This document shows, piece after piece, positions 12,798 to 62,417 of a stretch of 64,000 nucleotides of DNA (the stretch's first letter is position 1; every line of letters starts with the position of its first letter). The position numbers and the translations under genes were made by a program. This DNA is from Pseudomonadota bacterium (GTDB taxonomy: Bacteria; Pseudomonadota; Alphaproteobacteria; MED-G09), in the NCBI GenBank assembly GCA_036344135.1, contig JAYYUG010000097.1:8034-72033 (forward strand). The letters run 5' to 3'. The notes beneath the pieces were generated by a model, which was given only the letters and a program-made list of their open reading frames with translations, was not told the origin of the DNA and did no database searches.

Positions 12798-14144
12798 ATG
12801 AGTGAAAAAAGACTAGAGGAGCGTTCAGCAAGGGTTTCTGGGTCTGCCAATAGGGTATATTCGGAAGATGTTTTAATCACCGGAGATCGTTATACTTCAA
12901 TAGATTTCATGGAAAAAGAGATGGATAAACTGTGGTCAAGAGTTTGGAACATAGGAGGTTGGAGTAATGAAATTCCAAAATCGGGAGACTTTGTTACTCA
13001 CCATATAGGACGTGAATCTATACTAATGGTTCGTCAAACGGATGGTTCTGTTAAAGCGTTTCATAATGTCTGTCCTCATAGAGGAAATCGTCTTGTTCAT
13101 AACGATATTGGTTCAGTCCCGGAATTCACGTGCACTTACCATGGTTGGAAATTTGACCTCGGCGGTACGCTTATCTATGCTCAAGATGAAGAGGACTTTC
13201 CCAAAGGTAACCCATGTGGAAAACTTACTTTATCAGAAATCCCATGCGAAGTGTACGGTGGTTTTATTTGGTACAATATGGATGAAAATTGCTTCCCACT
13301 AAGCGGATTTTTGGGTGAAGTCAAAACCTACTTTGATATGCATGATTTAGAGGGCATGAAACGTATCTACCACAAAGTATGTGAAGTCCCTTTTAACTGG
13401 AAAGCATTAAGGGATAATTTTTGCGAATCCTACCATTTGCCAATGACTCATCCTCAAATCATAGATTACTTTGATGACGATTATAAAAATACTGATTTTG
13501 AACTTTTCGAAACCGGTCATAATTTAATGAAAATGAAAGGTTGCTTACCTTCTCTTCGCGATGCAGGAACATTTGAGATTAATGACAAACTTGAGGCAGA
13601 CCTTCTCAACTGGGGGCTGGATCCTGCTGATTTTGAAGGAAAAGCTCATAACGTTAGAGAAGCTCTTCAAAAACAAAAAAAGAAATTAGGTTCTAAAAGA
13701 GGTTTCAAACATTTTGAGAAAATGCCAGACGCTTGGCTTACAGATGCTTTCCATTTTAATGTTTTCCCGGGCACGTCCATCACCTTCACAGCTGAAGTTG
13801 TCTCTCTTCAGAGGACCGAACCACATCCGACCGATCCAAATAAATCGATTTATGATCATTGGCAAATGGCTTTGAAAGCAGATAATTCCGACAGCCCTGA
13901 AACTAACCCAACGATGTTGGTATCCAGTCCCGAAGAAATGGTTGAATGGGAAGAAGTTGAAAAGACAGTGGTAATATTTGGCGAAGAAACACTTAGTGAG
14001 GTCGCTGATCAAGATTTGGAAAGATCGAGCGGTCAACAACTGGGTTTTCACTCCCGAGGATTCAAGGGTGCTTATTTGTCTGGTCAAGAAAATCGTGTGC
14101 AACAATTTCATAACTTCATTGACCGTTATATAAATAAAATATAA
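12798..14144 (+). CDS. Rieske [2Fe-2S] non-heme iron oxygenase, alpha subunit (alpha-only type)
   Basis: CPHRGNRLVH...CTYHGWKF Rieske motif; catalytic-iron motif ESYHLPMTH; GGAGGG RBS. Confidence 0.9.
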   Translation: MSEKRLEERSARVSGSANRVYSEDVLITGDRYTSIDFMEKEMDKLWSRVWNIGGWSNEIPKSGDFVTHHIGRESILMVRQTDGSVKAFHNVCPHRGNRLVHNDIGSVPEFTCTYHGWKFDLGGTLIYAQDEEDFPKGNPCGKLTLSEIPCEVYGGFIWYNMDENCFPLSGFLGEVKTYFDMHDLEGMKRIYHKVCEVPFNWKALRDNFCESYHLPMTHPQIIDYFDDDYKNTDFELFETGHNLMKMKGCLPSLRDAGTFEINDKLEADLLNWGLDPADFEGKAHNVREALQKQKKKLGSKRGFKHFEKMPDAWLTDAFHFNVFPGTSITFTAEVVSLQRTEPHPTDPNKSIYDHWQMALKADNSDSPETNPTMLVSSPEEMVEWEEVEKTVVIFGEETLSEVADQDLERSSGQQLGFHSRGFKGAYLSGQENRVQQFHNFIDRYINKI

Positions 14145-14247
14145 TTCTCAACCACTAATATAGGATTTTCGAAGCGTGTTTATCCCTATTTCTATTTCCT
14201 TGGATTGCAAATATTAAAGCTTAGTATATCCATATAGATTAAGTATT

Positions 14248-16203
14248 TTAAATTTTTCTCGTTAATTCGACAGCCTCATGAATTGCGCTCATCATCGAGT
14301 TTCGACCACGTACATCACCAATAAGATGAGTGTTTCGATTTGTTTTAGCTAGAGCTTCTGAGAGCTCTCTATTAGGTTGATTGAAACTCACCAAGAATAC
14401 GGTTTTGGCTTCTAGTTTACGTTTTCGTTCTGTAAACAAGACTCCTATTTCTACCTCCTCTTCAGTGATTCCACGTAAATAATGACCGCCAATAAAATCA
14501 AAATCTCCTGACATTAATCGCTCTCTAGCAGCGCCTACTGTGACAGGAGGATATGGAACATTTTGCGCCATTTGTTCCATCCTAGAAACCAGAGTTACGT
14601 GAACGCCTGCATTGAGTAGTACATCAGCTACAGAGATTGATTCAAACGTTCCTGTATCGTCAAATATCACAGCTGGTCCCTCTATTTCTGGCTTTTTACC
14701 AACACCAAATAGACTCCAGGAATTATACACATGAGATAAATCAAACCCTGGTATAGGTTCTGCAGGACTAGATACCTGAAAGCCATCGTCGCGCGGTGTT
14801 GTTCCTGTTGCTATTATGATTTCATCTGGAGAAATTTCTCTGACCTTTTCTTCATCAACCATTGAGTTTAAGTGAACATCTACTGTAAGCTCTTCAATTT
14901 CATCCATTAGATACTGGATAATAGCTCCTAAATCCCCACGATTCGGCGCACTAGCAGCCATTGCCACTTGTCCGCCAAGACGACGAGAGGCTTCGTGTAG
15001 CTCTACTTCATGTCCTCTAATAGCTAATGTTCTTGCGGCTTCCAACCCTGCAAGACCTCCTCCAACTATAAGTATTTTTTTGGAATCAAGCACCTTGTCC
15101 TGAGGATCGAAAGGGATAGATTTTTCTTGTGCGGCAGCGACATTTACTACGCAACTTAATGTGGAACCGTTCATTATACGTCCCACACAACCCATATTAG
15201 AACCTACACAAGGTCGAATCTTACGTTCATTACCCGATCGAGCCTTATTGACTAACTCAGGGTCAGCAATAAGCGCACGAACCATAGAAACCATACTGGC
15301 TTCTCCACTAGCTACAATGGAGCTTGCATGGTCGAGGGTCATTATTCTCCCTGTAACAATTGTAGGTTTTGTGATTCCAGGAGTAACAACTTTATTAGGG
15401 ATCATCTCTACCCCTAGTGGATCATCTGAAGGTGCAATCAATTTGTGAAACCTCCAATATGCACCCATATGAAGAGAAATATAGTCAACTAGAGGATCAA
15501 CTATTTTTGCTATCTCAGCATTGTCTTCCGGTTTAAGTCCACCTGGTACATGGTCTTCATTAGGGATACGAACCCCCACCACAAAGGAACTGTCTTTAAC
15601 TTCTTCTCTTATCGCATTTATAATCTCAAGTAGAAAACGAACCCGATTATTTAATGACCCGCCATATTCATCAGTACGATGATTAGTAGCAGGTGATAAA
15701 AACTCATGAATTAAATACCCGCTGGAAGCATGTATATCTACACCATTCATGCCGCCATCACGACATCGTCGTGCAGCTGAAGCAAATGCTGCGGTAATTT
15801 CACCAATTTGCTCCTTCGTCATTTCTAATGGTATAACTCCTATCATAGGGTTAGGTATTGGGCTAGCTGACCAATTCTCAGGTGCTGCTCCATCAGGAAA
15901 ACTTGCCCCAGCATGATAAATTTGCTGGAACAGCTTCATTCCATAGGGTTTTATAGTAGAAGTCAGTTTTTCGTAAAATGGGATGCATTCATCTGACCAC
16001 AAAGGTAATAGGCCTGGTGCGCTAGGATGTACGCCAGTAGCTTCCAAGGTTGACATACCAACTCCTCCCCGGGCCCTAGCCTCGTGATAAGCAATCAAAT
16101 CATCTCCAAGGGTCAAAGTTGCATGAGGGGTTCTCACAATACGGTTCGGGATTGTAATCCCACCTACCTTTATGGGAACAAAGAGGTTATCATATTGAGC
16201 CAT
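14248..16203 (-). CDS. OYE-like NADH:flavin oxidoreductase fused to FAD/NAD(P)-binding domain (2,4-dienoyl-CoA reductase / TMA-dehydrogenase-like)
   Basis: N-terminal OYE TIM-barrel (HATLTLGDD...QIYHAG); partial Fe-S motif CVGSNMGCVGRIMNGSTLSC; Rossmann GGGLAGLEAARTLAIRGHEV. Confidence 0.85.
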   Translation of the reverse strand: MAQYDNLFVPIKVGGITIPNRIVRTPHATLTLGDDLIAYHEARARGGVGMSTLEATGVHPSAPGLLPLWSDECIPFYEKLTSTIKPYGMKLFQQIYHAGASFPDGAAPENWSASPIPNPMIGVIPLEMTKEQIGEITAAFASAARRCRDGGMNGVDIHASSGYLIHEFLSPATNHRTDEYGGSLNNRVRFLLEIINAIREEVKDSSFVVGVRIPNEDHVPGGLKPEDNAEIAKIVDPLVDYISLHMGAYWRFHKLIAPSDDPLGVEMIPNKVVTPGITKPTIVTGRIMTLDHASSIVASGEASMVSMVRALIADPELVNKARSGNERKIRPCVGSNMGCVGRIMNGSTLSCVVNVAAAQEKSIPFDPQDKVLDSKKILIVGGGLAGLEAARTLAIRGHEVELHEASRRLGGQVAMAASAPNRGDLGAIIQYLMDEIEELTVDVHLNSMVDEEKVREISPDEIIIATGTTPRDDGFQVSSPAEPIPGFDLSHVYNSWSLFGVGKKPEIEGPAVIFDDTGTFESISVADVLLNAGVHVTLVSRMEQMAQNVPYPPVTVGAARERLMSGDFDFIGGHYLRGITEEEVEIGVLFTERKRKLEAKTVFLVSFNQPNRELSEALAKTNRNTHLIGDVRGRNSMMSAIHEAVELTRKI

Positions 16204-16341
16204 TATCCTGCTTTCTAAAAATTAAGGTTACCGCAAGTGTATCATAAAGAATTCTTAGTATGCCTTTCTTTCTTTTGATAATGATTTATTGTAGGTTTAA
16301 TATAACGTGTAAACAACTGAAAATATTGATAGAGGTTAATC

Positions 16342-17697
16342 ATGGGAAAAATGTTTAAAGATCTTGACCCGGACACGATGGTTCGATCGCCAGGTATTAC
16401 TTATCAGGAACTACTTGATACTGATTCACACGATGTTCCTGATGTATTAAGAATCCAATCACCAAAAGATCTTGGGCATTCAGAATTCTCGGTAGAACGT
16501 TACATTTCTAAAGACTGGCATGACAAAGAAGTTGAAAGAATGTGGAAAAAAATCTGGCAATTTGTATGTAGGGAAGAAGATATTGCTGAACCAGGCGACC
16601 ATTATCGTTATGATATTGCTGGAATTTCATTTCTCATTCTTCGTACAGAGACGAATGAGATTAAAGCCTATCCCAATTCATGTCTTCACCGTGGTCGGAT
16701 GCTCAAAGAGTTTGATGGTCACGCTTCCGAATTACGATGCCCTTTCCATGGATTCTGTTGGCACCTTGATGGCTCATTAAAGCATATACCTGCAGATTGG
16801 GATTTCCCTCAGATAGATAAAGAAAATTTTTCTTTACCTGAACTACCAATCGCTATCTGGGGAGGATTTGTGTTTATTAATCCTGACCAGCAATGCGAAC
16901 CATTTGATGATTTCATTAAGGATATGAAGACTCAGTTTGAACGTTGGGAACCAGAAAAGCTATATAAACAAGCGCATGTTGCAAAAATCGTGCCTTGTAA
17001 CTGGAAAATCGCACAAGAGGCTTTCTGCGAGGCCTATCATGTCAGCGGAACCCATCCACAAATTTTACCAAGTTTGGGGTGTGTTAATAGTCAGATCGAT
17101 GTTTGGGATAATTGCGCCCGAGTTATTACACCATCAATGACACCTAGTCCTCTTTTAGATTACGAACTTTCTGAAAAAGATATGATGCGTACCATGATGG
17201 ATCTACCACCGGAAGCCCAGGTTCCAGAATTACCAAAAGACATGAATCCTCGAGAGTTTATGGCGAATAGTAGCAGAGAGGATTTAAGGCCTAACGCAGG
17301 AAGTAAAGTTGATGAATATTGTGATGCTGAAATATTAGATAGCCTCGATTATACCTTGTTTCCAAATTTTCATCCGTGGGGTGCATTTAATAAAATAGTG
17401 TATAGATTTAGGCCCAATGGTAACGATCACCGATCAGCGATTATGGAATGCATTATGCTTTCGCCATTTCAAGGAGAAAGACCGCCTCCAGCTCCCATTC
17501 ATTGGTTGAAAGAAGATGAAAAATGGTCCAGTGCCTTGGGTTTTTTAGGTAAAGTTTTCGATCAAGATACTTTCAATATGCCTAAGGTACAACTTGGACT
17601 AGAATCTACCTACAAGTCAGGAATCACACTATCTGGTTACCAGGAAGGGAAGGTTCGTTGGTTACATCACAAATTGACTGAATGGGTGGGAGAATAA
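16342..17697 (+). CDS. Rieske non-heme iron oxygenase, alpha subunit (paralog 2)
   Basis: CLHRGRML...CPFHGFCWH; catalytic-iron motif EAYHVSGTH; clear paralog of 39763 and 60993 genes. Confidence 0.9.
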   Translation: MGKMFKDLDPDTMVRSPGITYQELLDTDSHDVPDVLRIQSPKDLGHSEFSVERYISKDWHDKEVERMWKKIWQFVCREEDIAEPGDHYRYDIAGISFLILRTETNEIKAYPNSCLHRGRMLKEFDGHASELRCPFHGFCWHLDGSLKHIPADWDFPQIDKENFSLPELPIAIWGGFVFINPDQQCEPFDDFIKDMKTQFERWEPEKLYKQAHVAKIVPCNWKIAQEAFCEAYHVSGTHPQILPSLGCVNSQIDVWDNCARVITPSMTPSPLLDYELSEKDMMRTMMDLPPEAQVPELPKDMNPREFMANSSREDLRPNAGSKVDEYCDAEILDSLDYTLFPNFHPWGAFNKIVYRFRPNGNDHRSAIMECIMLSPFQGERPPPAPIHWLKEDEKWSSALGFLGKVFDQDTFNMPKVQLGLESTYKSGITLSGYQEGKVRWLHHKLTEWVGE

Positions 17698-17939
17698 TGC
17701 CTTCTGTAAAACATCCATTTGACCCAAATATTTTATATGAGCTAGATAAGGATGGCAACATAAGAGTGACCAATGGAGAAAAATTCGGTGTATTTACTAC
17801 TGAAGGTAGGCATATTACAGGAGAAATTCGTGAAGCCGATCCACAATTATGTGTTTGGGTCGGAAACAATCCTGATGTTGAACAACAGCAAGCGAGGGAT
17901 GAACGTTTTACGGAACGTCATGGTTTTAGGAAAAAATAA
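17697..17939 (+). CDS. Small hypothetical protein translationally coupled to Rieske oxygenase (TAATG overlap)
   Basis: 80 aa from ATG 17697 with GGGAGA RBS inside the end of the upstream gene; no recognizable motif, no Cys cluster. Confidence 0.35.
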   Translation: MPSVKHPFDPNILYELDKDGNIRVTNGEKFGVFTTEGRHITGEIREADPQLCVWVGNNPDVEQQQARDERFTERHGFRKK

Positions 17940-17979
17940 ATATCACGACTTCCAAACCTTAAGTTTTATTCTGTCAGTG

Positions 17980-18183
17980 TTATTTAAACCATAAATATGG
18001 TTTATTTCCAGTTATCCTAAAGTAAATTGACATGTTTACCATATGCGTAATCAAAAGAGCTACTGCTATTCCGATTGCCCATATAGGATCGCGGTAATTT
18101 AAATGCGCCCCGATCAAATATAAAGCAATAAGAACCACAATAGTCCATACACCCATTACCAAAAATGCTTTTAAAGAGCTCAT
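17980..18183 (-). CDS. Small two-TM membrane protein (hypothetical)
   Basis: 67 aa, two hydrophobic helices; last gene of minus-strand alkB operon; 3' end overlaps a hairpin (17986-18003). Confidence 0.3.
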   Translation of the reverse strand: MSSLKAFLVMGVWTIVVLIALYLIGAHLNYRDPIWAIGIAVALLITHMVNMSIYFRITGNKPYLWFK

Positions 18184-18185
18184 AT

Positions 18186-18524
18186 TTATGTCCTCCTAAT
18201 TCTCTTTTGCTTAAAATCCAGTTCTACTTTGATGTCGGATTTAAGGACCGATTGACAAGCAAGAATATATCCTTCTTTTAATTGTTCATCAGCCAACACA
18301 TATCCGAAATCTGTAAGTGGTCTAATCTTTCCCTCTAACAATTTGCATCTACATGTCCCGCAACTTCCGACCCGACAATAATGTGGCCATTTAATACCAT
18401 TGTCCAAAGCAGCTGTAAGTAATTTCTCTTCCCGTCTTACTTTCAAAGTTTCATTAGCATTTACAATATTTGCCACAAAATGCTTATCTTTTTTTATAAA
18501 AAAATTAAGCACATTTTCAAACAT
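18186..18524 (-). CDS. [2Fe-2S] ferredoxin (plant/adrenodoxin-like Cys spacing)
   Basis: CRVGSCGTCRC...C (Cx4Cx2C...C) cluster-binding motif. Confidence 0.8.
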   Translation of the reverse strand: MFENVLNFFIKKDKHFVANIVNANETLKVRREEKLLTAALDNGIKWPHYCRVGSCGTCRCKLLEGKIRPLTDFGYVLADEQLKEGYILACQSVLKSDIKVELDFKQKRIRRT

Positions 18525-18553
18525 AAATAATTCTGGCCAGTACTGAGTAAAAC

Positions 18554-18913
18554 TTAAAGTTTAATTACTTCAGGTCTAAGAGACCATAAAATAGCCAATA
18601 TTTCGTCTTTTATACCCTGATCAATATTGTTTTCATCTAAAGCAGCCATCATATCATCAACAACCGCATTGAATTCCTCTTCGGAAATATTCATACTCGT
18701 ATGTGCAGTTATCATGTCTTTACCTGTATACTCTTCAGGCCCTCCAAACCCGTTACACATAAACTCGGTCACTAATCTTATAACTTCATTAGGATCACTA
18801 TTAGCATAACGATTATTAACCGTTGGATTTGAAGTATGATTCTTAAACAATGATGTAGCAATTTCTTTAATTGAATCGGGACCACCAATCCTTTCATAAA
18901 GACTATCAGACAT
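18554..18913 (-). CDS. Truncated hemoglobin (group I trHb, HbN-like)
   Basis: LYERIGG start, GGPEEYTGKDM...H motif matching 2/2 globin signature. Confidence 0.75.
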   Translation of the reverse strand: MSDSLYERIGGPDSIKEIATSLFKNHTSNPTVNNRYANSDPNEVIRLVTEFMCNGFGGPEEYTGKDMITAHTSMNISEEEFNAVVDDMMAALDENNIDQGIKDEILAILWSLRPEVIKL

Positions 18914-18971
18914 AATTTTCTCCTTTTTATAAAGCCTTAGTAAAATAGACTAAAGCTATAATCAATATTTA

Positions 18972-20120
18972 TTAAGCATAACCAACTTGTTTGTTAATCT
19001 TAGTTGCAATTTCACGCTCTGCATCAGTTGCAAAAGTATTATCCCAATGATCAAGCTTTTTCTTAATTAAAGCATGCCATAAAGGTGGCACAAGGGCTAA
19101 AGTAAATCCAGTAAAGTAACCCCACCCAGGATTGGGTCCTCCAACATCATCCAATTCCCAGAAATGTGTTTCTCCACGAACATGGTGATCGCATTGACGA
19201 CCAATTTCTATGAAAAACCAACTCGTAAAAGCCGTATCATTATCCCAAGAATGACGGTGTTCAATGGGTTTGTCCTTTTCTCGTACTAACCCAAAATGCT
19301 CCATATAGTTAAGAGCTTCCAGCTCAAAATTAGATATAGTCCAGACAAAGAACATGCAAGCAACTCCGACTATACCGCCTGCCCACACAAACAGGATTAT
19401 AGTTGGAAGACTTATTAAATAACCTGTAATCCATTTGTTATCTAATGAGAAAAACGATTTCCCTTGTTTCTCAAGTTTTTCTTGTTCCAACTCAAAAGAA
19501 AATTTTGACTGTCCCATATGTGATAACCAAAAATGTTTGTAAAGACTTCTACCCCTAGGAGAAGTGGCAGGATCATTTTCATGGGCAAGTTCTAAATGAT
19601 GGTTATAGACATGTGCGTAACAAAAATGTGCAGCACCGCTCAACCCCATCATCAATCTTGAAATAGGCCAACCTATATCTTTAGTATGAGATAATTCATG
19701 ACCATAAATTATTCCAAGTCCTGCAAATGCACCTGCTGACAAAGAAGCTCCGTACAATTCAAGACCTGTAATGCCTGTTTGAACAGGTAACCAACCCAAC
19801 AACGTAACAGTCCCAAAATCAGCTCCACTCGTATACTGATAAACTCTCCAAGCTAATACTACTTGTAAGATAATGAATATTGGCAGCATCAAATACATTA
19901 CTAGATTTTGTAATTCTTTTATTCCATAAGACTTTCCATTTTTATCAAATCCAGCACCTTTAGTATGGAAGTTGATCACCAGAGTATCTATAGTAATGCC
20001 AACTAAAAATAAAACAGCTCCTGTCCAAACAAAAGGTCCGCCAACAATGAGACCTAATATCGTGACAGACGTCAAAACTGGTACAATAAAGTATCTAATA
20101 TTAATAAAAAATTTTTTCAT
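18972..20120 (-). CDS. alkB: AlkB-family integral-membrane alkane 1-monooxygenase (fatty-acid-desaturase-like diiron hydroxylase)
   Basis: His boxes HELSH, HVYNHH, RQCDHH and the AlkB-specific NYMEHFGL (NYIEHYGL) motif; about 6 TM helices. Confidence 0.8.
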   Translation of the reverse strand: MKKFFINIRYFIVPVLTSVTILGLIVGGPFVWTGAVLFLVGITIDTLVINFHTKGAGFDKNGKSYGIKELQNLVMYLMLPIFIILQVVLAWRVYQYTSGADFGTVTLLGWLPVQTGITGLELYGASLSAGAFAGLGIIYGHELSHTKDIGWPISRLMMGLSGAAHFCYAHVYNHHLELAHENDPATSPRGRSLYKHFWLSHMGQSKFSFELEQEKLEKQGKSFFSLDNKWITGYLISLPTIILFVWAGGIVGVACMFFVWTISNFELEALNYMEHFGLVREKDKPIEHRHSWDNDTAFTSWFFIEIGRQCDHHVRGETHFWELDDVGGPNPGWGYFTGFTLALVPPLWHALIKKKLDHWDNTFATDAEREIATKINKQVGYA

Positions 20121-21150: not shown

Positions 21151-21171
21151 TTCTTACCTCATTAACTTTTT

Positions 21172-21531: not shown

Positions 21532-21630
21532 GACTTAGTCCTCTTAAAAATTAATTAATATTCAAATTATAGTATTAATTGTGAGTTTTATACCCTTCAC
21601 TTCAATAATTATTAATGGTAACTGAAAAGA

Positions 21631-22322: not shown

Positions 22323-24191
22323 ATGATTATACCAATTCAGATTGACCCAGAAAACGGCCTAAAAATCTTCAATACTCGCGCATCCAAAGCAAGTGAAAAA
22401 ATTTCCGGTAAGGGTTATTCGGTAATGCAAGATGATACTCTTACTGATCTTCCCGCAGCACCTAAGGGTGCAGTCTTTAATGCCGAAGAACAGTCAAAAT
22501 ATCGAGAATTTAAGAAAAAAAGAACAGGTTCAGCTAACTATATGGCTATGGATGGAGACTTCAAAAAATATCTTGAAGATCTTTATTCTACAGATCCTAT
22601 TCCCAGAGATTCACTCAAGGATGAATGTGAGATACTTGTTGTTGGCGCGGGCTTAGCTGGACTATTACTCTGGTACAAACTTCAGAAAGCAGGTTTCAAC
22701 GATGTTCGTTTTTGTGAAAAAGGAGGCGATGTAGGTGGAACCTGGTACTGGAACCGTTACCCAGGTGTAGCTTGTGATGTGGAATCATACAGTTACCTGC
22801 CCCTACTCGAAGAAATGGATTACTTTCCAACAATGAAATTTGCTTCTGGATTTGAAATCATGGAATATTGTCAGGGTTTAGCTGAAAAATTCGGTTTCTA
22901 TAAGCGGTGTCTTTTCCACACGACCGTAGAAAAAACTGTCTGGGATGAAACTACATCAAAATGGACTATTTCAACAGATCGTGGAGATGAAATGAAAGCT
23001 CGTTTCGTTGTCCTTGCTAACGGTCTTCTCACTTCTCCTCGACTAGCAAGAATAGAAGGTATGGAGACTTTTAAAGGCGAATCCTTTCATACATCTCGTT
23101 GGAACTATGATGTTGATCTGTCAAATAAGGTTGTAGGTATTATTGGAACAGGTGCTACTGCCGTACAAACAATACCGGAATTAGCAAAAACAGTTAAAGA
23201 ACTTTTCGTTTTTCAACGAACTCCTTCTTCCATAGATGTCCGGGATCAAAGGGAAACTACTCAAGAAGAAGTCCAAACCTGGAAACGGGAACCTGGATGG
23301 GCAAAAGCTAGGCGCGCTAGATTTGCAAAAATTTCGGCTGGTCGTACTGCAATGAAAGCAAACGACGACTATCTATCTGGGAAAAAAGACCACTTTAAAG
23401 AAATAAAGCGCCATGAGGGAGATCTGTCTCCCGAGGAAATGATTGAAAAGCAGCTAGACACAAATTTTCGTATTATGGAGCAAATCCGAGCTAGAGTAGA
23501 TGCCATCATAGAAGATCCGGAAGTGGCCACCTCACTTAAACCATATTATCCCTATGGTTGCAAAAGACCAACTTTTCATGATGAATATCTTCCAACCTTT
23601 AATTTAAAGCACGTAACTTTAGTCGATACAGCACCTTTAGGTGTCACAAAAATCAATAAAGATGGAGTTGTGTATGATGATAAAGAATATCCTTTGGACG
23701 TATTAATTTATGCAACAGGCTTTAGATGGATGGAAGCTGCAACTTTTAATATGGTCATAGGTAAAGACGGAAAATCCTTAAAAGAAAAATGGGCTTTAAA
23801 TGGTACAAAAACTTTCCTTGGAATTCATAGCAACGGTTTTCCAAATCTATTCATTGTTACTGGCCCTCAAGGAGGTGGAGGAAGTTTCAATTTCACAGAT
23901 GCCATTGAAGCCCACGGCGATTATATAATATGGATGTTAGAAACCATGAAAAATCAGAATACAGGAGTTCTTGATGTTAAGAAAAAACATGAGGATGAAT
24001 ATTCTGAACACTGCAGAGACGTTGATACAAGAACCAGTGCCTTTAGAGACTGCATTTCCTATTACAACGATGAAGGAAAAGCTGAACCAGGGAGTTTAGC
24101 CTATTATGGTGGTGGACAATGGCACAAAAGAAGAATTAAAGCTCAGAAAACCCTCAAACCCTATCTTTTTAATACTGTTCCTCGTCAATAA
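22323..24191 (+). CDS. Baeyer-Villiger monooxygenase (type I flavin-containing, NADPH-dependent)
   Basis: FAD GxGxxG (VVGAGLAGL), BVMO fingerprint FKGESFHTSRW, second Rossmann GIIGTGATAVQ. Confidence 0.9.
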   Translation: MIIPIQIDPENGLKIFNTRASKASEKISGKGYSVMQDDTLTDLPAAPKGAVFNAEEQSKYREFKKKRTGSANYMAMDGDFKKYLEDLYSTDPIPRDSLKDECEILVVGAGLAGLLLWYKLQKAGFNDVRFCEKGGDVGGTWYWNRYPGVACDVESYSYLPLLEEMDYFPTMKFASGFEIMEYCQGLAEKFGFYKRCLFHTTVEKTVWDETTSKWTISTDRGDEMKARFVVLANGLLTSPRLARIEGMETFKGESFHTSRWNYDVDLSNKVVGIIGTGATAVQTIPELAKTVKELFVFQRTPSSIDVRDQRETTQEEVQTWKREPGWAKARRARFAKISAGRTAMKANDDYLSGKKDHFKEIKRHEGDLSPEEMIEKQLDTNFRIMEQIRARVDAIIEDPEVATSLKPYYPYGCKRPTFHDEYLPTFNLKHVTLVDTAPLGVTKINKDGVVYDDKEYPLDVLIYATGFRWMEAATFNMVIGKDGKSLKEKWALNGTKTFLGIHSNGFPNLFIVTGPQGGGGSFNFTDAIEAHGDYIIWMLETMKNQNTGVLDVKKKHEDEYSEHCRDVDTRTSAFRDCISYYNDEGKAEPGSLAYYGGGQWHKRRIKAQKTLKPYLFNTVPRQ

Positions 24192-24239
24192 TTATTATTA
24201 AATTAGATAAGGTCCAGAGAAAAAAATTTATTTTCTTTT

Positions 24240-25493: not shown

Positions 25494-25542
25494 AATTTAT
25501 TCTCCTTATTTAATTCTCTTTCTTATCTTTGCGTCTAAAAGG

Positions 25543-26157: not shown

Positions 26158-26178
26158 AATTAATCCCCTTCTTTAATT

Positions 26179-37783: not shown

Positions 37784-37795
37784 GAGAAAGTACGT

Positions 37796-54385: not shown

Positions 54386-54426
54386 CTTATGAGATTGTTT
54401 GAATTTACAAACAATCTAAGTTTAGC

Positions 54427-57423
54427 TTGATGTCTATTAGGGCTCAGCTACTCTTATTTGTAGTTATAGGTTACTTATTAATTGCCGTTGTCTTTTTCTT
54501 ATCCACTCAAACTAGAGATTCGATTCAGCAAGATGCTGCTGGTGAGTCCTTGGTTGTTCTTTATGAATCCGCCTGGTATCAGACATACAACAACACCTAT
54601 GATTTAATGGGTCGTTGGTTACCTGGTTACGGCGAAAAAGGAAATATATGGGATCCCGATGACGAAACATTTATAGATGAGGTAGATGCACAGGGAAAAT
54701 ATTTAAACCCAATATTCAATACGATAGAAAACAGATCATTGGGAGATCTTCAGTATCTAATTGAGTTTATCTTCGAAGAAGAGTTAGACGAAGGTGACTT
54801 GAGTTTTGTTATGGCTTATTTTCCCACTGGCGAAAGATTTTACTGTGGAAGCGCCTTAGATTTGCTTGGTATAGATCCTTGTAGCCCAAAAGCGAGACTA
54901 GGGTTTTTCTCATATCTCGACTCCTACATAAAAGATATTTCACAAAGACCTAAACAATCTACTCTCAAGATTCTTGATTCAGAAAACAAGCAGACAACAA
55001 CTCTTAATCAAACTTATTCTTTTCCAATAAAGGTGAACAAAAAAACAATTGCTTTGATAGTTCTAGGGGTTGATGTACGAAAGGCAATTGAGGTTTTTGA
55101 AGATGAGTTTGAAGTAAGAACCGGTATAAAAACTCCTGAGGGTTTAATTTCCTTAGAGGAAGATTATTCATCCGACGATTTGAATATCGAAGCAAGATAC
55201 GGTATAGAAAATTACTCAGAGTTGGTTGCAAAGGCTAACCTTCTTATGGAATCGAAAGGAAGTAGATACAGCGACAAAGATTTTTCTCTTGGTACCTCAA
55301 TTACTCTGTTACCTTTAAGTTCATATCTTTCCTCTGACAAGGCAGAATTATTTATTTTTAAAGATGAGAAGATCTCAATGGCTAGATCTTCTGAGGTTCT
55401 TACGAGAAGCTATATTATTGTAACTTTAATGCTTTTGCTTATTGTCTCTTTAACCTCATTCGTCACTTACCGGACATTCGGAGGTATAACAAGAGCAATT
55501 AAAGTTTTAGAAGGTCTTACAAAAGGTGATCATACTCAACAAATGCCAAAAAGATCAGGTCTGATGGCTTCTGAAAATGATGAAGTAGGTCAACTATCAA
55601 CTGCTCTTCATAGCTATAGAGGTCATTTATTGGAGATGGAGGATATTAGAAAAGAACAAGCCCAAAGAAGAAAAGAAAGAGACAGAGTTATTATTGAGAA
55701 GATGTCTTTTCTAGCTGATCAACTAGAGGGAGACGCACAAAAACTTATTCTTGAGGATGTCGAAAAAATGACAGAACTGGCAAAGAAGGGTGATGATGTG
55801 GACTCCGAAGAGGCATCAGTCGAATTAATGTCTCTAGCATTCTCTCGAATGTCTGATGAAGTAAATGCTTTGATCGCAGCAAGAACAACTGAGATGGAAT
55901 CTTCCAGAGATGAAGCAAGGGACGCTAATGAAGAAAAGACAAGATTTTTCGCAAACATGAGTCATGAACTTAGGACTCCGCTTAACGCTATTTTAGGATA
56001 CGGAGAGATGCTTGCAGAAGATTGTGAAGACCTGGGTTATGATGATCTTTTGCCTGACTTAAAGAAAATTACTTCTGCAGGTAGTCACCTTCTCTCATTA
56101 ATCAACAATATTCTGGATATTTCAAAGATTGAAGCAGGAAGGATGGAGCTCTATTTAACCAGTTTTGAAATAGAATCCATGGTGGAGACAATTAAAGATG
56201 TTACCGGACCTTTAGCCTCTGCTAATGATAATGGTTTTAAAGTCAATTTACAGGACGTTTTAGGATCCATGACTCAAGATGAAACAAAGATTAGACAATG
56301 CTTGACCAACTTCTTGAGTAATGCATTTAAATTCACTTTAAGTGGAACGGTAACTCTTGATGTAGATACTTTCATGCAAGACGAATTAGAAATGATCAGG
56401 TTCGCGGTAACGGATACGGGCGAAGGAATGACAGAAGAAGGTCTCAGTAAAGTATTTAGGGAATATGAGCAAGCTGAAAGATCAACATCTGCTAAACACG
56501 GTGGTACTGGTCTAGGTCTACCTATCACAAAGAAACTCGCAGAAATGATGGGAGGAGATGTAATGGTTACCAGTGAGCTTGGAGCGGGGTCAGTTTTTAC
56601 CCTTTATGTTCCAAGAGTATGTCCACAAGAACACGATGAAGTAGAGGACGCTAATGCAATAAGCAAACTCTCTGATAAGGAGAAAGTAGTTGTCTTAATT
56701 GATGATGATGTCCCAATTCATGATATTATTAGAAGGACTCTATCAAAGATTGGTCTCACTCTTATCGGTGCAACTGATGGTGAAAAAGGCTTACAAATAG
56801 TCAGAGAAATGAAACCCAAGCTTCTTTTATTAGATGTCTTGATGCCTGGTAGGGATGGATGGTCTATCCTTAAAGAGTGCAAGTCTGATCCTGAACTAAG
56901 AGATATGCCAGTAGTTATGGTCAGCCAGCTATCACAGGACGTTCTTTCAGAATCATTAGGTGCGGATGATTATCTTACAAAACCTATCGATAGAGATTTG
57001 TTTCTAGAAACTGTCCAACGACTAATTAAAGATTCTCCGAATGGCGAAAATAAAGTTCTTGTTATTGACGATGATGCTGATGTCAGAGAATTACTTTCTA
57101 GGATGCTTAAGGATGCAGGATGGATTTCAGTAACAGCAAGAGATGGTAAAGAGGGTCTGGAAAAAGTAAAAGACACACCTTCGTTAATAGTTCTTGACCT
57201 TGAGATGCCGCGAATGGATGGATTTGAATTCTTAGATGCCTATATGAAGAACTATAACGAGTTAAACCGTGCACCTATACTGGTTTACTCTGGAAAAGAT
57301 CTTTCCGAAGTTCAAAAAGATATTTTGAATAAGAATGTCGCCGGTATGGTTAGAAAAGATGAGGTTTCAATGGATGAACTCTCAAAAATTGTGAAAAATA
57401 TTTATCAAGAATCTATCTCCTAG
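54427..57423 (+). CDS. Hybrid sensor histidine kinase (periplasmic sensor-TM-HisKA-HATPase_c-REC-REC)
   Basis: Two TM segments flanking a ~300-aa periplasmic domain; H-box FFANMSHELRTPLNAILGY; N/G boxes; two receiver domains (VLIDDD...LLDVLMPGRDG and VLVIDDD...LDLEMPRMDG). Confidence 0.9.
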   Translation: MMSIRAQLLLFVVIGYLLIAVVFFLSTQTRDSIQQDAAGESLVVLYESAWYQTYNNTYDLMGRWLPGYGEKGNIWDPDDETFIDEVDAQGKYLNPIFNTIENRSLGDLQYLIEFIFEEELDEGDLSFVMAYFPTGERFYCGSALDLLGIDPCSPKARLGFFSYLDSYIKDISQRPKQSTLKILDSENKQTTTLNQTYSFPIKVNKKTIALIVLGVDVRKAIEVFEDEFEVRTGIKTPEGLISLEEDYSSDDLNIEARYGIENYSELVAKANLLMESKGSRYSDKDFSLGTSITLLPLSSYLSSDKAELFIFKDEKISMARSSEVLTRSYIIVTLMLLLIVSLTSFVTYRTFGGITRAIKVLEGLTKGDHTQQMPKRSGLMASENDEVGQLSTALHSYRGHLLEMEDIRKEQAQRRKERDRVIIEKMSFLADQLEGDAQKLILEDVEKMTELAKKGDDVDSEEASVELMSLAFSRMSDEVNALIAARTTEMESSRDEARDANEEKTRFFANMSHELRTPLNAILGYGEMLAEDCEDLGYDDLLPDLKKITSAGSHLLSLINNILDISKIEAGRMELYLTSFEIESMVETIKDVTGPLASANDNGFKVNLQDVLGSMTQDETKIRQCLTNFLSNAFKFTLSGTVTLDVDTFMQDELEMIRFAVTDTGEGMTEEGLSKVFREYEQAERSTSAKHGGTGLGLPITKKLAEMMGGDVMVTSELGAGSVFTLYVPRVCPQEHDEVEDANAISKLSDKEKVVVLIDDDVPIHDIIRRTLSKIGLTLIGATDGEKGLQIVREMKPKLLLLDVLMPGRDGWSILKECKSDPELRDMPVVMVSQLSQDVLSESLGADDYLTKPIDRDLFLETVQRLIKDSPNGENKVLVIDDDADVRELLSRMLKDAGWISVTARDGKEGLEKVKDTPSLIVLDLEMPRMDGFEFLDAYMKNYNELNRAPILVYSGKDLSEVQKDILNKNVAGMVRKDEVSMDELSKIVKNIYQESIS

Positions 57424-57782
57424 CTTATTAAGCTTTCGATTTTTTCGAGAAGTCTTTTAAAATCTATAGGTTTTGTATCAAAATCATCTGCTCCGCACGC
57501 CAAAGCCTTTACTCTATCGGACTCTAAAGCGTGTGCTGTCAAAGCTATAATTGGTATCTCTTTAATTTCATCATCTGCCTTTGCAGTTGTTGTGGCCTCC
57601 CAACCGTCCATGACCGGTAATCCCATATCCATTAGCACTAGATCAGGTTTCTCAGATTTCATCATCTCAATTCCTTCTTTTCCGTCAAGGGCAAGGAAAA
57701 CCTCATAATTTCTTCTTTGAAGCCTTCTTGATAACATATCTCTATTCATTTCGTTGTCCTCAACATATAATATCTTTGCCAT
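57420..57782 (-). CDS. Single-domain response regulator (CheY-like REC)
   Basis: ILYVEDNEMNRDML...DLVLMDMGLPVMDG...ALTA...K. Confidence 0.9.
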   Translation of the reverse strand: MAKILYVEDNEMNRDMLSRRLQRRNYEVFLALDGKEGIEMMKSEKPDLVLMDMGLPVMDGWEATTTAKADDEIKEIPIIALTAHALESDRVKALACGADDFDTKPIDFKRLLEKIESLIS

Positions 57783-57795
57783 CTTATTTCCTTTT

Positions 57796-59265
57796 TTAAT
57801 TATTCAAAATAAACTTATCTCTTCCTGTCTTTTTCGCTTCATAAAGCCTCTTGTCTGCCTTATTAACTACATCAGAGATATTTCCAGATTCAGATGTTAA
57901 CGCTATTCCTCCACTCGCAGTGATAGTAATTGATTGACCTTCGTAATCAACTTTAACAGCATGAATACTAGATCTCAATTTATCGCAAAATTCAGAAATA
58001 TTTTTACCATCCTCATTAAAGATTACCGCTAAAAACTCTTCACCGCCGATTCTACCAACAATGTTAGGTTCAGAAATAAAGCTGTCTAAGGTATTAGCTA
58101 GAGCCTTCAAAACCTCATCACCTCCAGAATGACCATAAGTATCATTGACTGTCTTAAAGAAATCTATGTCAATCATAATAACTGTAAAATCTTTACGCTT
58201 TCCATCTTGTAGTTCTGAATATGCGTCTTCAAGAGTTTCGAAAATAACTCTTCTATTATGAATCCCTGTTAGTTGATCGGTGGTGGCTTGGATATGAAGC
58301 GTATTAACAAGCTCCTTTTCCCTTTCTCGAAAGAACTTTCTTTCCAAGGAAGATATAACTTTGGCTAATAATATAGTACCGTTAAGAGGTTTGGGAAGAT
58401 AATCTTGAGCTCCCAATTGTATGCATTTAGCAATTCCATCTACATCATTAAATGCAGAAACCATAATTATTGGGAGATTTTCGCTTCTGTTGTCCTTTCT
58501 AAATCTCTTAAGTAACTCCAATCCATTAATGTCGGGCAGTATTACATCTAGAAGAATTAGATCAGGTAGTTTTTTATTAACCTCCTCAATAGCACTATTT
58601 CCATCATAAGCTATTCTGCAATTCAAGCCCTGCAATTCAAGCCTTCTTTTAAGAACCTCACAATTAGTAACATTATCATCAACTATTAAAATATCTGCAC
58701 CCTGCAAGCTTTCATCTAAGTCGAGAGAAAAATCTATATCACCCAGAGATTTAAACAAAGATTCAGCAGTTTCTAATTGTGAAGAACCTTCATCATTTGT
58801 TTTTGAAGGCTCTCCTCGGATATAATCAACAAAAGTCTCTATGGCTTTCTCAGTCTCTCTGGAAAGATTTATTATCTTGTGGAAATCCAATAAGGCCTCC
58901 TTCGACAAATCGTCCTCTAAATCTTCTATTAGAATTTCGCTATAACCAATAATGGCATTTAGAGGGGTTCTTAGATTATGCCTTAACTCTGAATACTCCT
59001 CCGGTTTTCTTTCTTCTGTGGTAGCATTTGACCCGGTATTTTCTTCGAAAGCTTCCTCATATTGTTCAATAAGTTTAATACAACCTGATTTAATCTGATC
59101 TATCTCATCCCCAGCAGCAATATTGGCCTCGTTGATACTTTTTTCAATCATCTCTAGATAATCAGAGATTGCACCTACAGGAGTAGTGAATTCTTGTTTA
59201 ATCTGAGCTAAAATAATATCTCTAGCCCCTTTGGGAGCTTTATTTCCTGTGACCTTACTCATCAT
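57796..59265 (-). CDS. HisKA-like (x2, no ATPase) - REC - GGDEF diguanylate cyclase
   Basis: N-terminal H-box-like segments (QEFTTPVGAISDY lacking His; ELRHNLRTPLNAIIGY with His); REC ILIVDDN...LLDVILPDINGLE; GGDEF with GGEEF active site and RxxD I-site-like region. Confidence 0.85.
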   Translation of the reverse strand: MMSKVTGNKAPKGARDIILAQIKQEFTTPVGAISDYLEMIEKSINEANIAAGDEIDQIKSGCIKLIEQYEEAFEENTGSNATTEERKPEEYSELRHNLRTPLNAIIGYSEILIEDLEDDLSKEALLDFHKIINLSRETEKAIETFVDYIRGEPSKTNDEGSSQLETAESLFKSLGDIDFSLDLDESLQGADILIVDDNVTNCEVLKRRLELQGLNCRIAYDGNSAIEEVNKKLPDLILLDVILPDINGLELLKRFRKDNRSENLPIIMVSAFNDVDGIAKCIQLGAQDYLPKPLNGTILLAKVISSLERKFFREREKELVNTLHIQATTDQLTGIHNRRVIFETLEDAYSELQDGKRKDFTVIMIDIDFFKTVNDTYGHSGGDEVLKALANTLDSFISEPNIVGRIGGEEFLAVIFNEDGKNISEFCDKLRSSIHAVKVDYEGQSITITASGGIALTSESGNISDVVNKADKRLYEAKKTGRDKFILNN

Positions 59266-60349
59266 GATTTCCGATTAAAGTATCCAAAAACTCAGGTTTA
59301 TGCATAAGAAAACCCTGACCTATTTTGCATCCAATCTTTACCATGGAGGCTTTCTGTTCCTCTGTCTCTATGCCTTCTCCTATCATTTCTAATGAAAGGG
59401 AGTTGCAAACTTCAACTACAAATTTAATAAGTTGTGCTGTTGATTTATCATCTAATCCATTAGTAAAATGTTTATCCAGTTTAATGACGTCTAAGGGAAG
59501 ATCTTTGACATATTTAAGTGATGCATAACCAGCGCCAAAGTCGTCTAACGCAATTTTTATTCCTTTTTCTTTAAGTACATTTAGATATTTACTTGCCTTC
59601 ATAGTATCACTTAATTCAGCAGTCTCAGTTACTTCAAGTCCAAATTCTCCGGGTTCAAATTCAAAACTATCAGCAAAATCTGCAAATATTTTGCTGAACT
59701 CTGGGTGCATAATCGTATGAGCAGAAACATTTAAATATACAGTTGCGTTTTTCAGACCAATTTTATTTTTAACAGGAAATATTTCTGAAAGTTTCTTCAA
59801 AGATGATTTAACAACAAGAGAAAATAGACTTTCTCCTTCAATTTGAGGAATTATTATGTCATTAGGGATAATTTTACCCTCATCATCTCTTAACCTCAAC
59901 AGAGCCTCAACACCTGTCACTTCTCCCGTTTCTAGATTAAACTGCTTTTGATAAGCTAAATCAATACGGTCATACTCTACACAGGATATTGTTTGTTTGA
60001 GGGCTTCCAATCCAAGACGTGATTCACACAAAACCTCTATAAGTAGGAAATTATCAGAATCCTCTGAGGGGATTAGGTGAATTCTAGTTGTTATATAAAA
60101 TTCGATTTTTCGAAGACATATTTCAATAGAAGTGGAATAGGTGTTAGCTATTAAATCTTTGGAAGATTGAGAGTCTTCATCTATTTTAATATTTTTTATT
60201 GTTAGGTCAGATGTGTTTCCTGTACGAAATATGTACTCAGACGCCAGATTTATCCACTTAATGGTTCCATCTGTTTCACAGATAATGTAAGGGCTCGGAT
60301 GATGCATTAGAGATTTGAATAAATAATCTAGGTGATTTGAAGAATCCAT
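59255..60349 (-). CDS. EAL-domain c-di-GMP phosphodiesterase with N-terminal sensory domain
   Basis: EALLR, DDFGAGYAS, KLDKHF, GEGIETEEQ catalytic motifs. Confidence 0.85.
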   Translation of the reverse strand: MDSSNHLDYLFKSLMHHPSPYIICETDGTIKWINLASEYIFRTGNTSDLTIKNIKIDEDSQSSKDLIANTYSTSIEICLRKIEFYITTRIHLIPSEDSDNFLLIEVLCESRLGLEALKQTISCVEYDRIDLAYQKQFNLETGEVTGVEALLRLRDDEGKIIPNDIIIPQIEGESLFSLVVKSSLKKLSEIFPVKNKIGLKNATVYLNVSAHTIMHPEFSKIFADFADSFEFEPGEFGLEVTETAELSDTMKASKYLNVLKEKGIKIALDDFGAGYASLKYVKDLPLDVIKLDKHFTNGLDDKSTAQLIKFVVEVCNSLSLEMIGEGIETEEQKASMVKIGCKIGQGFLMHKPEFLDTLIGNHDE

Positions 60350-60359
60350 TTCCGAGCCT

Positions 60360-60815: not shown

Positions 60816-60992
60816 AAGCAGACTCCTTACTCATAATTTTAATCATAATTTTCCTTATAGCTAATTATATTTTATTCCAACTCAATAGTACATATGAGAA
60901 AAAGCGTATGATTAGCAAATATTTTACAAAATAAAGTGTTGTTGTTAATATCGATGGTGCTGTTGTCAAGATGGCTGGGGGAATCTAAAACC

Positions 60993-62417
60993 ATGAAAGT
61001 GATCAAAGCAAAAGATATGAATTATAAAGCCAACGGTGATGGTCCCACCTTGCAAAAAGTTTTTGATGGTGACAGCATCCAACCACCAGCAGCCTTTCGA
61101 GAAGACCCCAGTATGGAACTGGGTACAGCTGACATCTCTATCGATCGTTACACTTCCCAAGAATGGCATCAAGCCGAAGTAAAGAATGTCTGGCAAAAGG
61201 TTTGGCAGGTTGCCTGCCGATTAGAGGAAATCCCCGAGATAGGCGACTACGTTGTCTACGACATTGTAGACGACAGCTTAATCATTACCCGTACGAGTGA
61301 AAACGAAGTACATGCCTATTTTAATGCCTGTCTGCATCGTGGGAATGCTCTATGTATGGAAAATGGCCATGCCGAGAAATTCCGCTGTCCTTTCCATGGT
61401 TTTACTTATTCTTTGCAAGGCAAACTTGAATCTATCCCCAGTGACTGGGATTTTCAGCATGTCGACAAGAATGAATATTCCTTGCCCGAGGCCAAGGTCG
61501 GTTTTTGGGGTGGTTTTGTCTTTGTTAATCTCGACCCGAATTGTGGGTCTCTGGAAGATTATCTGGAGATCATCCCTAAGCATCTTGATGGATTTGATTT
61601 TGATAAAAAGTATAAGGCTATCCATTTATCTAAGGTGATGCCGTGCAATTGGAAGGTCTGCCAAGAGGCCTTTATTGAAGGCTATCATGTCGCCGAAACC
61701 CATTATGAACATACAGCTGATGGTGGTATCGACCCAGATGGTATTGGCTCCTTCATGGATGATGTAATGATGCAATATGATGTCTGGCCTGAAAGCAAGC
61801 ACGTGACCCGCATGATCCTGGCAAGCGGTGTCGCCAGCCAACATGTCGCTAAGCACGACCGGTCCGAACAACACATTATCGATATGATGTTACACTATCT
61901 GCCTGAAGACCAACGCCCGCAGTTGAAAGAAGGTGAAAAGGCCCGCCCTGCCCTTGCTGAACATAGCCGAAAAACACTTGGTGCCTTGTATGGCGTTGAT
62001 CTATCGCAACACAGTGACACAGATGTTCTAGACCAGGTGGAATACACACTTTTTCCAAACTTTACCTTTTGGCCAACCCTGTTTGCACCGTTGCTGTATC
62101 GTTTCAGGCCCCACGGCCATAATGTCGATGAAAGCATCATGGAAGTGTACATGCTTTATCCTATCCCCGAAGATGGACGAGACTATAAAACAAGTGAAGA
62201 AGTACGGCTGGCACCCGGTGAAACGTGGTCTTCACGCTCCGAACTTGGTAATTACGGCCCTATTCTCGACGAAGACACTCCCAATATGATCCGCATGACC
62301 AAAGGGCTGAAGACATCGCGTAAGCCGGGAATCACTCTCGCCAACTACCAGGAAAACCGCTTGCGCCAGTTTCATGGAGTTTTGGATGATTATGTTGGCG
62401 GGAAATACAAGAAATGA
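60993..62417 (+). CDS. Rieske non-heme iron oxygenase, alpha subunit (paralog 4, in GC-rich island)
   Basis: CLHRGNAL...CPFHGFTYS; catalytic-iron motif EGYHVAETH; ATG 60993 with GGGGAA RBS preferred over upstream GTG 60936; GC ~50% vs ~37% background. Confidence 0.85.
   Translation: MKVIKAKDMNYKANGDGPTLQKVFDGDSIQPPAAFREDPSMELGTADISIDRYTSQEWHQAEVKNVWQKVWQVACRLEEIPEIGDYVVYDIVDDSLIITRTSENEVHAYFNACLHRGNALCMENGHAEKFRCPFHGFTYSLQGKLESIPSDWDFQHVDKNEYSLPEAKVGFWGGFVFVNLDPNCGSLEDYLEIIPKHLDGFDFDKKYKAIHLSKVMPCNWKVCQEAFIEGYHVAETHYEHTADGGIDPDGIGSFMDDVMMQYDVWPESKHVTRMILASGVASQHVAKHDRSEQHIIDMMLHYLPEDQRPQLKEGEKARPALAEHSRKTLGALYGVDLSQHSDTDVLDQVEYTLFPNFTFWPTLFAPLLYRFRPHGHNVDESIMEVYMLYPIPEDGRDYKTSEEVRLAPGETWSSRSELGNYGPILDEDTPNMIRMTKGLKTSRKPGITLANYQENRLRQFHGVLDDYVGGKYKK

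Follow-up and report, generated by a model that had tools for sequence, protein, structure and literature searches.

The 64-kb stretch of DNA analysed here (positions 8,034 to 72,033 of the Pseudomonadota contig JAYYUG010000097.1; hereafter the window, GC content 36.9%) carries four genes for Rieske oxygenase alpha subunits, which we call R1 to R4 in coordinate order. Our analysis indicates that R1–R4 are probably anciently diverged paralogues acting as separate modules, and not the outcome of a recent burst of duplication; this degree of confidence is a joint one for the whole of our best explanation, that is, for the ancient paralogy, the modules, and the mechanism and substrates proposed below. 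The region as such is an unremarkable catabolic one, rich in oxygenases, rather than the site of a recent gene expansion, and the four proteins are uncharacterised new members of a very large known family (11,989 clusters at 50% identity with E ≤ 0.001, and 588 with E ≤ 1e-30).

An earlier note on this DNA had placed four Rieske genes in the window, and the open reading frames (ORFs) match it exactly, all on the forward strand: R1 at 12798–14144 (448 amino acids, aa), R2 at 16342–17697 (451 aa), R3 at 39763–41175 (470 aa) and R4 at 60993–62417 (474 aa), where the start at ATG 60993 is consistent with orthologues of 474 aa. Each protein matched Pfam Rieske (PF00355) above the gathering threshold (E 1e-15 to 1e-16) and Ring_hydroxyl_A (PF00848) with 61–109 bits against a cut-off of 24.9 (E 1e-16 to 1e-31), the latter matches spanning nearly the whole 208-position profile. 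A six-frame scan of the 64 kb for CxH-x15-22-CxxH returned exactly four matches, one per gene (C92, C114, C117 and C113 in R1 to R4, respectively). The iron motif E-x2-H-x4-H, described in the note as common to all of them, is indeed present in four of four: E210-x2-H213-x4-H218 in R1, F228-x-E230-x2-H233-x4-H238 in R2, E233-x2-H236-x4-H241 in R3 and E229-x2-H232-x4-H237 in R4. A C-terminal DxD motif is also kept in R1–R4 (D409 of R2 does not vary among 63 sequences), and its aspartate would, by homology, be the third iron ligand. Two further resemblances proved narrower than had been claimed. The shared Rieske spacing holds for R2–R4 (x16) but not for R1 (x17), and the N-terminal motif supposedly shared by all is matched only in part by R1, which reads DRYTS..F....LW.RVWN.GGW.NEIPKSGD; the pattern is, in any case, largely family-general, with CntA aligning through the same stretch.

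Full-length BLASTP comparisons among the four proteins gave E values from 1e-37 to 1e-122, which puts their homology well outside chance. Because the alignments run full length, R1–R4 belong to one homologous family and not to unrelated Rieske families. R2, R3 and R4 are 38–40% identical to one another (E about 1e-113 to 1e-122), while R1 shares 25–27% with them (E 1e-37 to 1e-46). In the region from the Rieske motif to the iron motif R2–R4 are 48–51% identical; in the C-terminal half, within the catalytic domain, the figure is 33–36% among R2–R4 and 18–20% for R1. On these alignments, then, R1–R4 can be described as three members of one subfamily (R2–R4) and one distant relative from a divergent subfamily (R1).

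Database comparisons place close relatives of three of the four outside the window's lineage. R1 has 658 relatives (top identities 95, 82 and 73%), with orthologues at 43–60% in Sphingomonadales, Emcibacter, Niveispirillum and Halopseudomonas. For R2 we found 3,573 database relatives, comprising, among the matches listed, a 94% twin and then 119 sequences at 72–81%; in species-representative genomes its orthologues occur in Pseudomonadales / Candidatus Azotimanducaceae (69–80%), in Myxococcales (67%), and in Acidimicrobiia and other Actinomycetota (51–60%). For R4, the database relatives at E ≤ 1e-20 number 2,684, among them sequences at 96% and 84% and a series at 62–72%. R3 is the exception: its own cluster at 90% identity or more has 74 members, and the best 50%-cluster representative beyond it is 45% identical. 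Near-identical copies of window sequences occur in Tara and other marine metagenomes, and a close relative has R1, R3 and R4 on a contig of 293,830 bp that is syntenic around R4. Exact-sequence look-ups gave no recorded match for R2, R4 and the window's GGDEF gene, whose context was read from neighbouring genes and near-identical relatives.

The earlier note had read the four genes as a lineage-specific expansion; in such a scenario the copies would have arisen by duplication within the lineage and then diversified. Some features of the window fit such a history, namely the full-length homology of all four genes within 50 kb and the distance of only 2.2 kb between R1 and R2. Rieske copy number is, moreover, dynamic in this lineage: comparison with related genomes showed that the closest species-representative metagenome-assembled genome, NP1070, has an extra, fifth alpha paralogue (L061, 8253–9803, reverse strand, 516 aa) of normal GC content and about 50% identical to R2. 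That gene is inserted beside R2, between it and a gene for a FadH/OYE-type flavoenzyme, at a site that in the window is just an intergenic spacer of 138 bp (16204–16341). Nevertheless, we consider a recent expansion highly improbable. The window paralogues are only 26–40% identical, and a neighbour-joining tree of 102 sequences pairs none of them as sisters; R1, R2 and R4 are placed in three different clades, one for each, and R3 forms a long branch apart. By comparison, R1, R2 and R4 have orthologues of 43–96% identity in other orders or phyla. It is the lack of a sister pair, together with these closer orthologues in other taxa, that leaves a recent lineage-specific expansion unsupported. 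The composition of R4 differs as well, and R1, R2 and R4 have different partner genes; for R3 no partner was identified.

The copy that looks separately acquired is R4. Directly after it lies a gene for an AUDH-type bicupin protein (62414–63295, forward strand, 293 aa; Pfam AUDH_Cupin E 5.5e-28, PDB 4a7k E 3e-17), whose start overlaps the R4 stop by 4 nt. These two genes make up a GC-rich patch of 2.3 kb (60993–63295) and are the sole outliers in GC at third codon positions (GC3) among 45 ORFs: R4 has a GC of 0.466 and a GC3 of 0.474, the cupin gene 0.482 and 0.490, so that GC3 is 0.47–0.49 against 0.28 (z 3.5–3.8), and the genes on either side are normal. The earlier note had put one copy in a GC-rich island and regarded it as separately acquired; the island is real but covers only R4 and the next gene, and separate acquisition is supported by the two genes being the only GC3 outliers and by the high-GC relatives of R4. 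In a longer syntenic locus (L013) the high-GC stretch is again exactly R4 plus the cupin gene (0.47–0.49 against 0.37 in the flanks), and the pair is kept there, in L014 and in the contig of the 84% R4 orthologue. It is absent beside the R4 orthologues at 67–71% identity, which sit in contigs of 57–60% GC, where the GC of the gene equals that of its flanks. A scan of metagenome contigs with R4 yielded three loci, all of the same lineage, and the wider conservation of the pair is drawn from three individual locus look-ups.

Horizontal acquisition of R4 is supported because its 67–71% relatives lie in genomes of 57–60% GC. Judging from composition and relatives, R4 and the cupin gene are probably a two-gene cassette that came from a donor of higher GC content, at a time before the diversification of the sampled population, and the cupin gene was probably co-acquired as a partner of R4. 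The GC-rich patch could instead be a product of selection (for example, codon bias for high expression) and not of horizontal transfer. Such an origin would sit well with the fixation of the patch at the same site in all sampled relatives, and with the lack of a tRNA gene, an integrase or a flanking repeat at the patch (there are no tRNA genes in the window, nor any meaningful repeats flanking the patch). Selection is, however, an unlikely explanation, given that the GC3 shift from 0.28 to 0.48 is large and limited to two adjacent genes, that no comparable shift is seen in R1–R3, and that the 67–71% relatives come from genomes of 57–60% GC in which gene and flanks have the same composition.

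Two observations can be added on the surroundings and relatives of the cassette. Directly upstream lies a signalling cluster (54427–60349) encoding a 998-aa hybrid histidine kinase, a response-regulator/GGDEF protein and an EAL protein, which is kept in L013 and L014. In addition, the NCBI labels within the clusters of R1, R3, R4 and the cupin at 90% identity or more disagree (Pseudomonadota, Gammaproteobacteria, Rhodobiaceae, Dehalococcoidia), a sign that binning or taxonomy is inconsistent for this marine lineage.

R2, too, has a partner of its own. An ORF of 80 aa (17697–17939, forward strand) is translationally coupled to it, its ATG overlapping the R2 stop (TAATG), with a Shine–Dalgarno-like GGGAG at 17688–17692. 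The small ORF adjoins the R2 orthologue in at least 74 of 80 genome loci searched by tblastn (a profile hidden Markov model gave 78 hits), lying downstream of it in Gammaproteobacteria and upstream in Acidimicrobiia, and the pair is kept across Gammaproteobacteria, Acidimicrobiia and Myxococcota. It is the sole near-universal neighbour of R2 across the 80 genomes; the other recurrent neighbours are variable and include short-chain dehydrogenases/reductases (SDRs) at 30 loci, cytochromes P450 at 19 (often directly upstream), enoyl-CoA hydratases at 13 and luciferase-like monooxygenases at 11. The encoded protein has a strongly conserved 55-residue core, HP[FL]..LY..G.I.V...G.F...G...SG....DPQ.C.W, and no matches in Pfam, NCBIfam or the PDB; no homologue was found beside R1, R3 or R4, and a single-sequence AlphaFold model (predicted local distance difference test, pLDDT, 61) was too poor for a fold search. 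No beta-sized ORF is conserved near R2 in the 80 genome neighbourhoods. We tentatively propose that R2 and the 80-aa protein might form a new two-component oxygenase, in which a small, cofactor-less partner not of the NTF2 class would serve as structural subunit, effector or assembly factor. With its unusual conservation (72–81% within a bacterial family, over 50% across phyla) and its near-universal small partner, the R2 clade makes a good biochemical target, and this family-less partner is the most interesting by-product of the analysis.

Other genes around R2 were considered as partners and rejected. The FadH/OYE-type Fe-S flavoenzyme between R1 and R2 (14248–16203, reverse strand, 651 aa; Pfam Oxidored_FMN + Pyr_redox_2) has as its best NCBIfam models the mycofactocin FadH/OYE-2 and BaiCD, both below cut-off; it was discarded as a dedicated R1/R2 partner, not being kept beside R2 outside this lineage. 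The window's single candidate electron carrier is a plant-type [2Fe-2S] ferredoxin (18186–18524, reverse strand, 112 aa; Pfam Fer2 E 3e-17, NCBIfam fdx_plant and reductase Fer2 domains). It was likewise set aside as a conserved R2 partner because no loci but L015 and L061, both of the same lineage, have it near R2; more probably it works with an adjacent FA_desaturase/AlkB-like gene. The ferredoxin gene and this neighbour belong to a reverse-strand cluster (17980–20120) encoding a 67-aa membrane protein, the 112-aa ferredoxin, a 119-aa truncated-globin-family protein and a 382-aa FA_desaturase/AlkB-like membrane protein; this cluster, found in same-lineage loci only, might act as a ferredoxin-dependent hydroxylase or desaturase system in the membrane. 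A promoter and terminator scan around R1–R2 gave nothing above the shuffled expectation. In many Pseudomonadales genomes (L016–L060; for example L031 8797–9990 and L034 8572–9933) a P450 gene lies directly upstream of the R2 orthologue on the same strand, giving the order P450, Rieske, small ORF; the window has no P450 at that position.

R1 belongs to a third arrangement. Divergent from it lies a gene for a TonB-dependent receptor (10197–12668, reverse strand, 823 aa; Pfam Plug + TonB_dep_Rec), followed by one for a SnoaL_4 / NTF2-like protein (9724–10143, forward strand, 139 aa; Pfam SnoaL_4 E 6e-19). This trio (9724–14144) recurs in a distant 4.4-Mb gammaproteobacterial genome (L100, 10001–14295), between rnf genes and metG, with identities of 73% for R1, 59% for the receptor and 61% for the SnoaL_4 protein, and with the receptor directly downstream of the R1 orthologue. 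Its recurrence suggests a self-contained uptake-plus-oxidation module, in which the receptor is the candidate importer and the R1 substrate probably enters through it. For R3, in contrast to R1, R2 and R4, no partner gene was identified; its flanks hold a family-less 409-aa protein, an SDR, an aldo-keto reductase (AKR) and a metallo-beta-lactamase-fold (MBL) protein. Directly upstream of R3 (34596–39677, forward strand) are genes for a TP_0789/LolA-like protein, two FtsX/MacB-type permeases, an ATP-binding-cassette ATPase and the 409-aa protein, which gives a weak hint of an outer-membrane beta-barrel.

The earlier note had also called the four enzymes alpha-only. Our Pfam annotation covered window ORFs of at least 150 aa plus the called smaller genes, and among these there was neither a Ring_hydroxyl_B (PF00866) gene nor an FNR/GbcB-type reductase. 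Of the three SnoaL_4 proteins in the window, two were checked directly and gave no Ring_hydroxyl_B match at E ≤ 10, and the third has none among the precomputed Pfam hits. An FMN/Fe-S reductase of the CntB or GbcB type was found neither beside any copy nor elsewhere in the window. The description thus stands as regards the beta subunit, but needs to be qualified by the conserved 80-aa ORF of R2 and the conserved SnoaL_4 neighbour of R1.

We envisage four independent mono-oxygenases that would share one reductase encoded elsewhere. Each alpha subunit would form a head-to-tail trimer with no canonical beta subunit; electrons would pass from NAD(P)H through the reductase (possibly with a ferredoxin) to the Rieske cluster, and from there, via a bridging glutamate, to the mononuclear iron of the neighbouring subunit, where O2 would be activated. 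Each enzyme would thereby mono-oxygenate a small organic substrate of its own, by hydroxylation or by oxidative dealkylation. The specificities should differ because, in a comparison by region, the pocket-forming C-terminal halves of R1–R4 proved to be just 18–36% identical.

The structural evidence comes chiefly from R2. Its AlphaFold model, built from 63 sequences, is of high confidence (pLDDT 93, predicted template-modelling score, pTM, 0.91) and has the fold of CntA and the naphthalene dioxygenase (NDO) alpha subunit; CntA is the best structural match, and Stc2 (3vca) and 3N0Q are among the top ones. In the alignment of R2 with CntA, F228-x-E230-x2-H233 falls on Y203-x-E205-x2-H208, while alignment with the Rhodococcus naphthalene dioxygenase needs a one-residue gap and has Asp at the bridging position. 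F-x-E is found in all four window proteins, which thus have Glu at the bridging position with CntA-like spacing and Phe at the position of CntA Y203. E205 of CntA is an experimentally supported inter-subunit electron bridge, and Y/F at position 203 has been proposed as a signature of group Va, with Asn marking group Vb (PMC7948474). The F-x-E criterion of group V may not be exclusive, since NDO also has a Phe nearby.

These residues bear on the possibility that R1–R4 are ring-dihydroxylating dioxygenases of the classical aromatic type, with the genes for their beta subunits and electron-transfer proteins lying elsewhere, or, in a variant of this idea, that R1 has a divergent beta subunit in the SnoaL_4 protein. 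The source annotations do name phenylpropionate or aromatic ring-hydroxylating dioxygenase large subunits, the best PDB sequence matches of R1 are biphenyl and benzene dioxygenase alpha subunits, and the window holds a glyoxalase/extradiol-fold gene at 48084–49463. SnoaL_4 proteins and Ring_hydroxyl_B-type beta subunits, moreover, are both of the NTF2-like fold class, and a SnoaL_4 gene is kept near R1. That gene is not co-transcribed with R1, however, and Ring_hydroxyl_B has no match in the window, even at the E ≤ 10 applied to the SnoaL_4 proteins checked. At the bridging position there is a Glu, spaced as in CntA, where NDO-type enzymes have Asp and an extra residue; the scores for the HcaE, BenA and AntA equivalog models are far below cut-off (55–124 bits against 670–830); and no copy stands beside a cis-dihydrodiol dehydrogenase or meta-cleavage operon. 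Classical dioxygenases are therefore a distinctly unlikely identity for R1–R4.

The main alternative to our proposal points in another direction, to group-V-type quaternary-ammonium or N-methyl oxygenases (like CntA, GbcA and Stc2) acting on osmolyte-type amines. A corollary would be that the FadH/OYE flavoenzyme is a second-step N-methyl demethylase like StcD; the Oxidored_FMN + Pyr_redox_2 architecture is common to StcD and to trimethylamine and dimethylamine dehydrogenases, and an enzyme of this architecture does lie between R1 and R2. Its best models, however, are FadH/OYE and BaiCD, not amine dehydrogenases, and it is not kept beside R2 in other lineages, where the neighbours of R2 are P450, SDR, enoyl-CoA hydratase and luciferase-like monooxygenase genes. 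As for the oxygenases themselves, GbcA is the best NCBIfam model for all four, CntA is the best PDB sequence match for R2 and R3 as well as the best structural match for R2, and the bridging Glu is accompanied by an aromatic residue at the CntA Y203 position. Yet the GbcA matches reach only 101–135 bits against a cut-off of 670 and cover only the N-terminal 190–200 residues, the PDB sequence matches of the window proteins likewise end after the iron motif (N-terminal ~245 residues), the window proteins are 60–100 residues longer than CntA, and a GbcB/CntB-type reductase is not adjacent. In their mechanistic hallmarks R1–R4 resemble the alpha3 enzymes of group V, but score, length and partner reductase set them apart from that group. 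We regard the amine reading as a doubtful one for these enzymes.

For R1–R4 as mono-oxygenases, we would instead expect hydrophobic, alicyclic or lipid-like dissolved organics as substrates rather than quaternary amines, because their neighbours encode a P450, a Baeyer–Villiger monooxygenase, an ene-reductase, SDRs, an acyl-CoA dehydrogenase, SnoaL-like proteins and hydrolases. The oxidative genes of the window include the P450, a PtlE-like Baeyer–Villiger monooxygenase, the FadH/OYE Fe-S flavoenzyme, two FA_desaturase/AlkB-like proteins (one with the adjacent ferredoxin and globin), a copper amine oxidase, an acyl-CoA dehydrogenase, a glutathione S-transferase (GST) and several SDR, alcohol dehydrogenase and AKR genes; to these can be added a glyoxalase-fold protein, three SnoaL_4 proteins, an EthD protein, hydrolases of the alpha/beta, MBL and beta-lactamase folds, transporters of the major facilitator superfamily and the TonB-dependent receptor. 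The earlier note had seen here a strong metabolic commitment, for example to the demethylation or hydroxylation of diverse dissolved organics; this is no more than plausible, packed as the region is with other oxidoreductases. Four of the genes stand in a row at 22323–28083: the PtlE-like Baeyer–Villiger monooxygenase (below cut-off for the neopentalenolactone D synthase model, at 466 bits), the acyl-CoA dehydrogenase, the GST and the copper amine oxidase. The last of these (634 aa, Pfam E 3e-149) is unusual in an otherwise lipid/alicyclic-oriented neighbourhood.

Several points weigh against our overall interpretation. The tree was made by neighbour-joining without support values; horizontal transfer of R4 is argued from composition and from the GC content of its relatives, the hallmarks of mobile elements having been looked for and not found; and the R1 trio is backed by one distant genome plus same-lineage contigs. 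An electron-transfer partner was not identified in the window, and a reductase encoded elsewhere is an assumption. All NCBIfam equivalog scores are far below their cut-offs, for which reason function has been inferred from context only. Finally, the best sequence and structure neighbours (CntA, the GbcA model and Stc2) act on quaternary amines, and with Phe at the Y203 position in all four proteins a charged-amine substrate could still apply to R1–R4.

What the analysis changes is the evolutionary account of the region, which in our reading probably holds old, independently conserved modules and one horizontal acquisition, not the products of local duplication. The three testable modules (R1 with the receptor and the SnoaL_4 protein, R2 with the 80-aa protein, and R4 with the cupin) could guide the search for substrates of marine oxygenases. 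Literature searches on Rieske proteins together with HTCC2089, and on Azotimanducaceae, returned nothing relevant. Multiple Rieske alpha genes lacking beta genes have already been described in pelagic bacteria, and the window is a smaller, proteobacterial example.

Comparison with characterised systems places R1–R4 beside several known enzymes and inside none of them. CntA (PDB 6y8j; group Va, PMC7948474) is about 20% identical, with the sequence match confined to residues ~54–244; the extra length of the window proteins goes with an inserted helical segment in the catalytic domain, a neighbouring gene for a CntB-type reductase is absent, and the gene context is not one of amine metabolism. 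With GbcA and Stc2 (PDB 3vca; group Vb) the window proteins share a carboxylate bridge, GbcA being also the best-scoring model; they differ in having Phe where group Vb has Asn at the CntA-203 position, and in missing a GbcB or Stc3/4 partner. GbcA and Stc2 are alpha3 enzymes, as the window proteins are predicted to be. The classical alpha3beta3 dioxygenases (1ndo/2b1x, 1uli, HcaE 8k0a) have an Asp bridge with one extra residue (N-F-x-G-D-x-Y-H), unlike the Glu and shorter spacing seen here, and their operons include an obligatory Ring_hydroxyl_B gene and dedicated ferredoxin and reductase genes, none of which the window has. At the level of gene content, the nearest parallel is found in SAR202 Chloroflexota, whose COG4638 expansions reach 62 alpha genes against 1–3 beta genes per genome and have been read as an arsenal for resistant dissolved organic matter, with horizontal transfer suggested in part (PMC6946804). 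As in SAR202, many Rieske alpha genes occur with few or no beta genes in a pelagic marine bacterium. In contrast to SAR202, where the proteins are mostly annotated as phthalate-family, the window belongs to Pseudomonadota, has fewer copies, all of the PF00848 type, and holds conserved partner genes for R1, R2 and R4.

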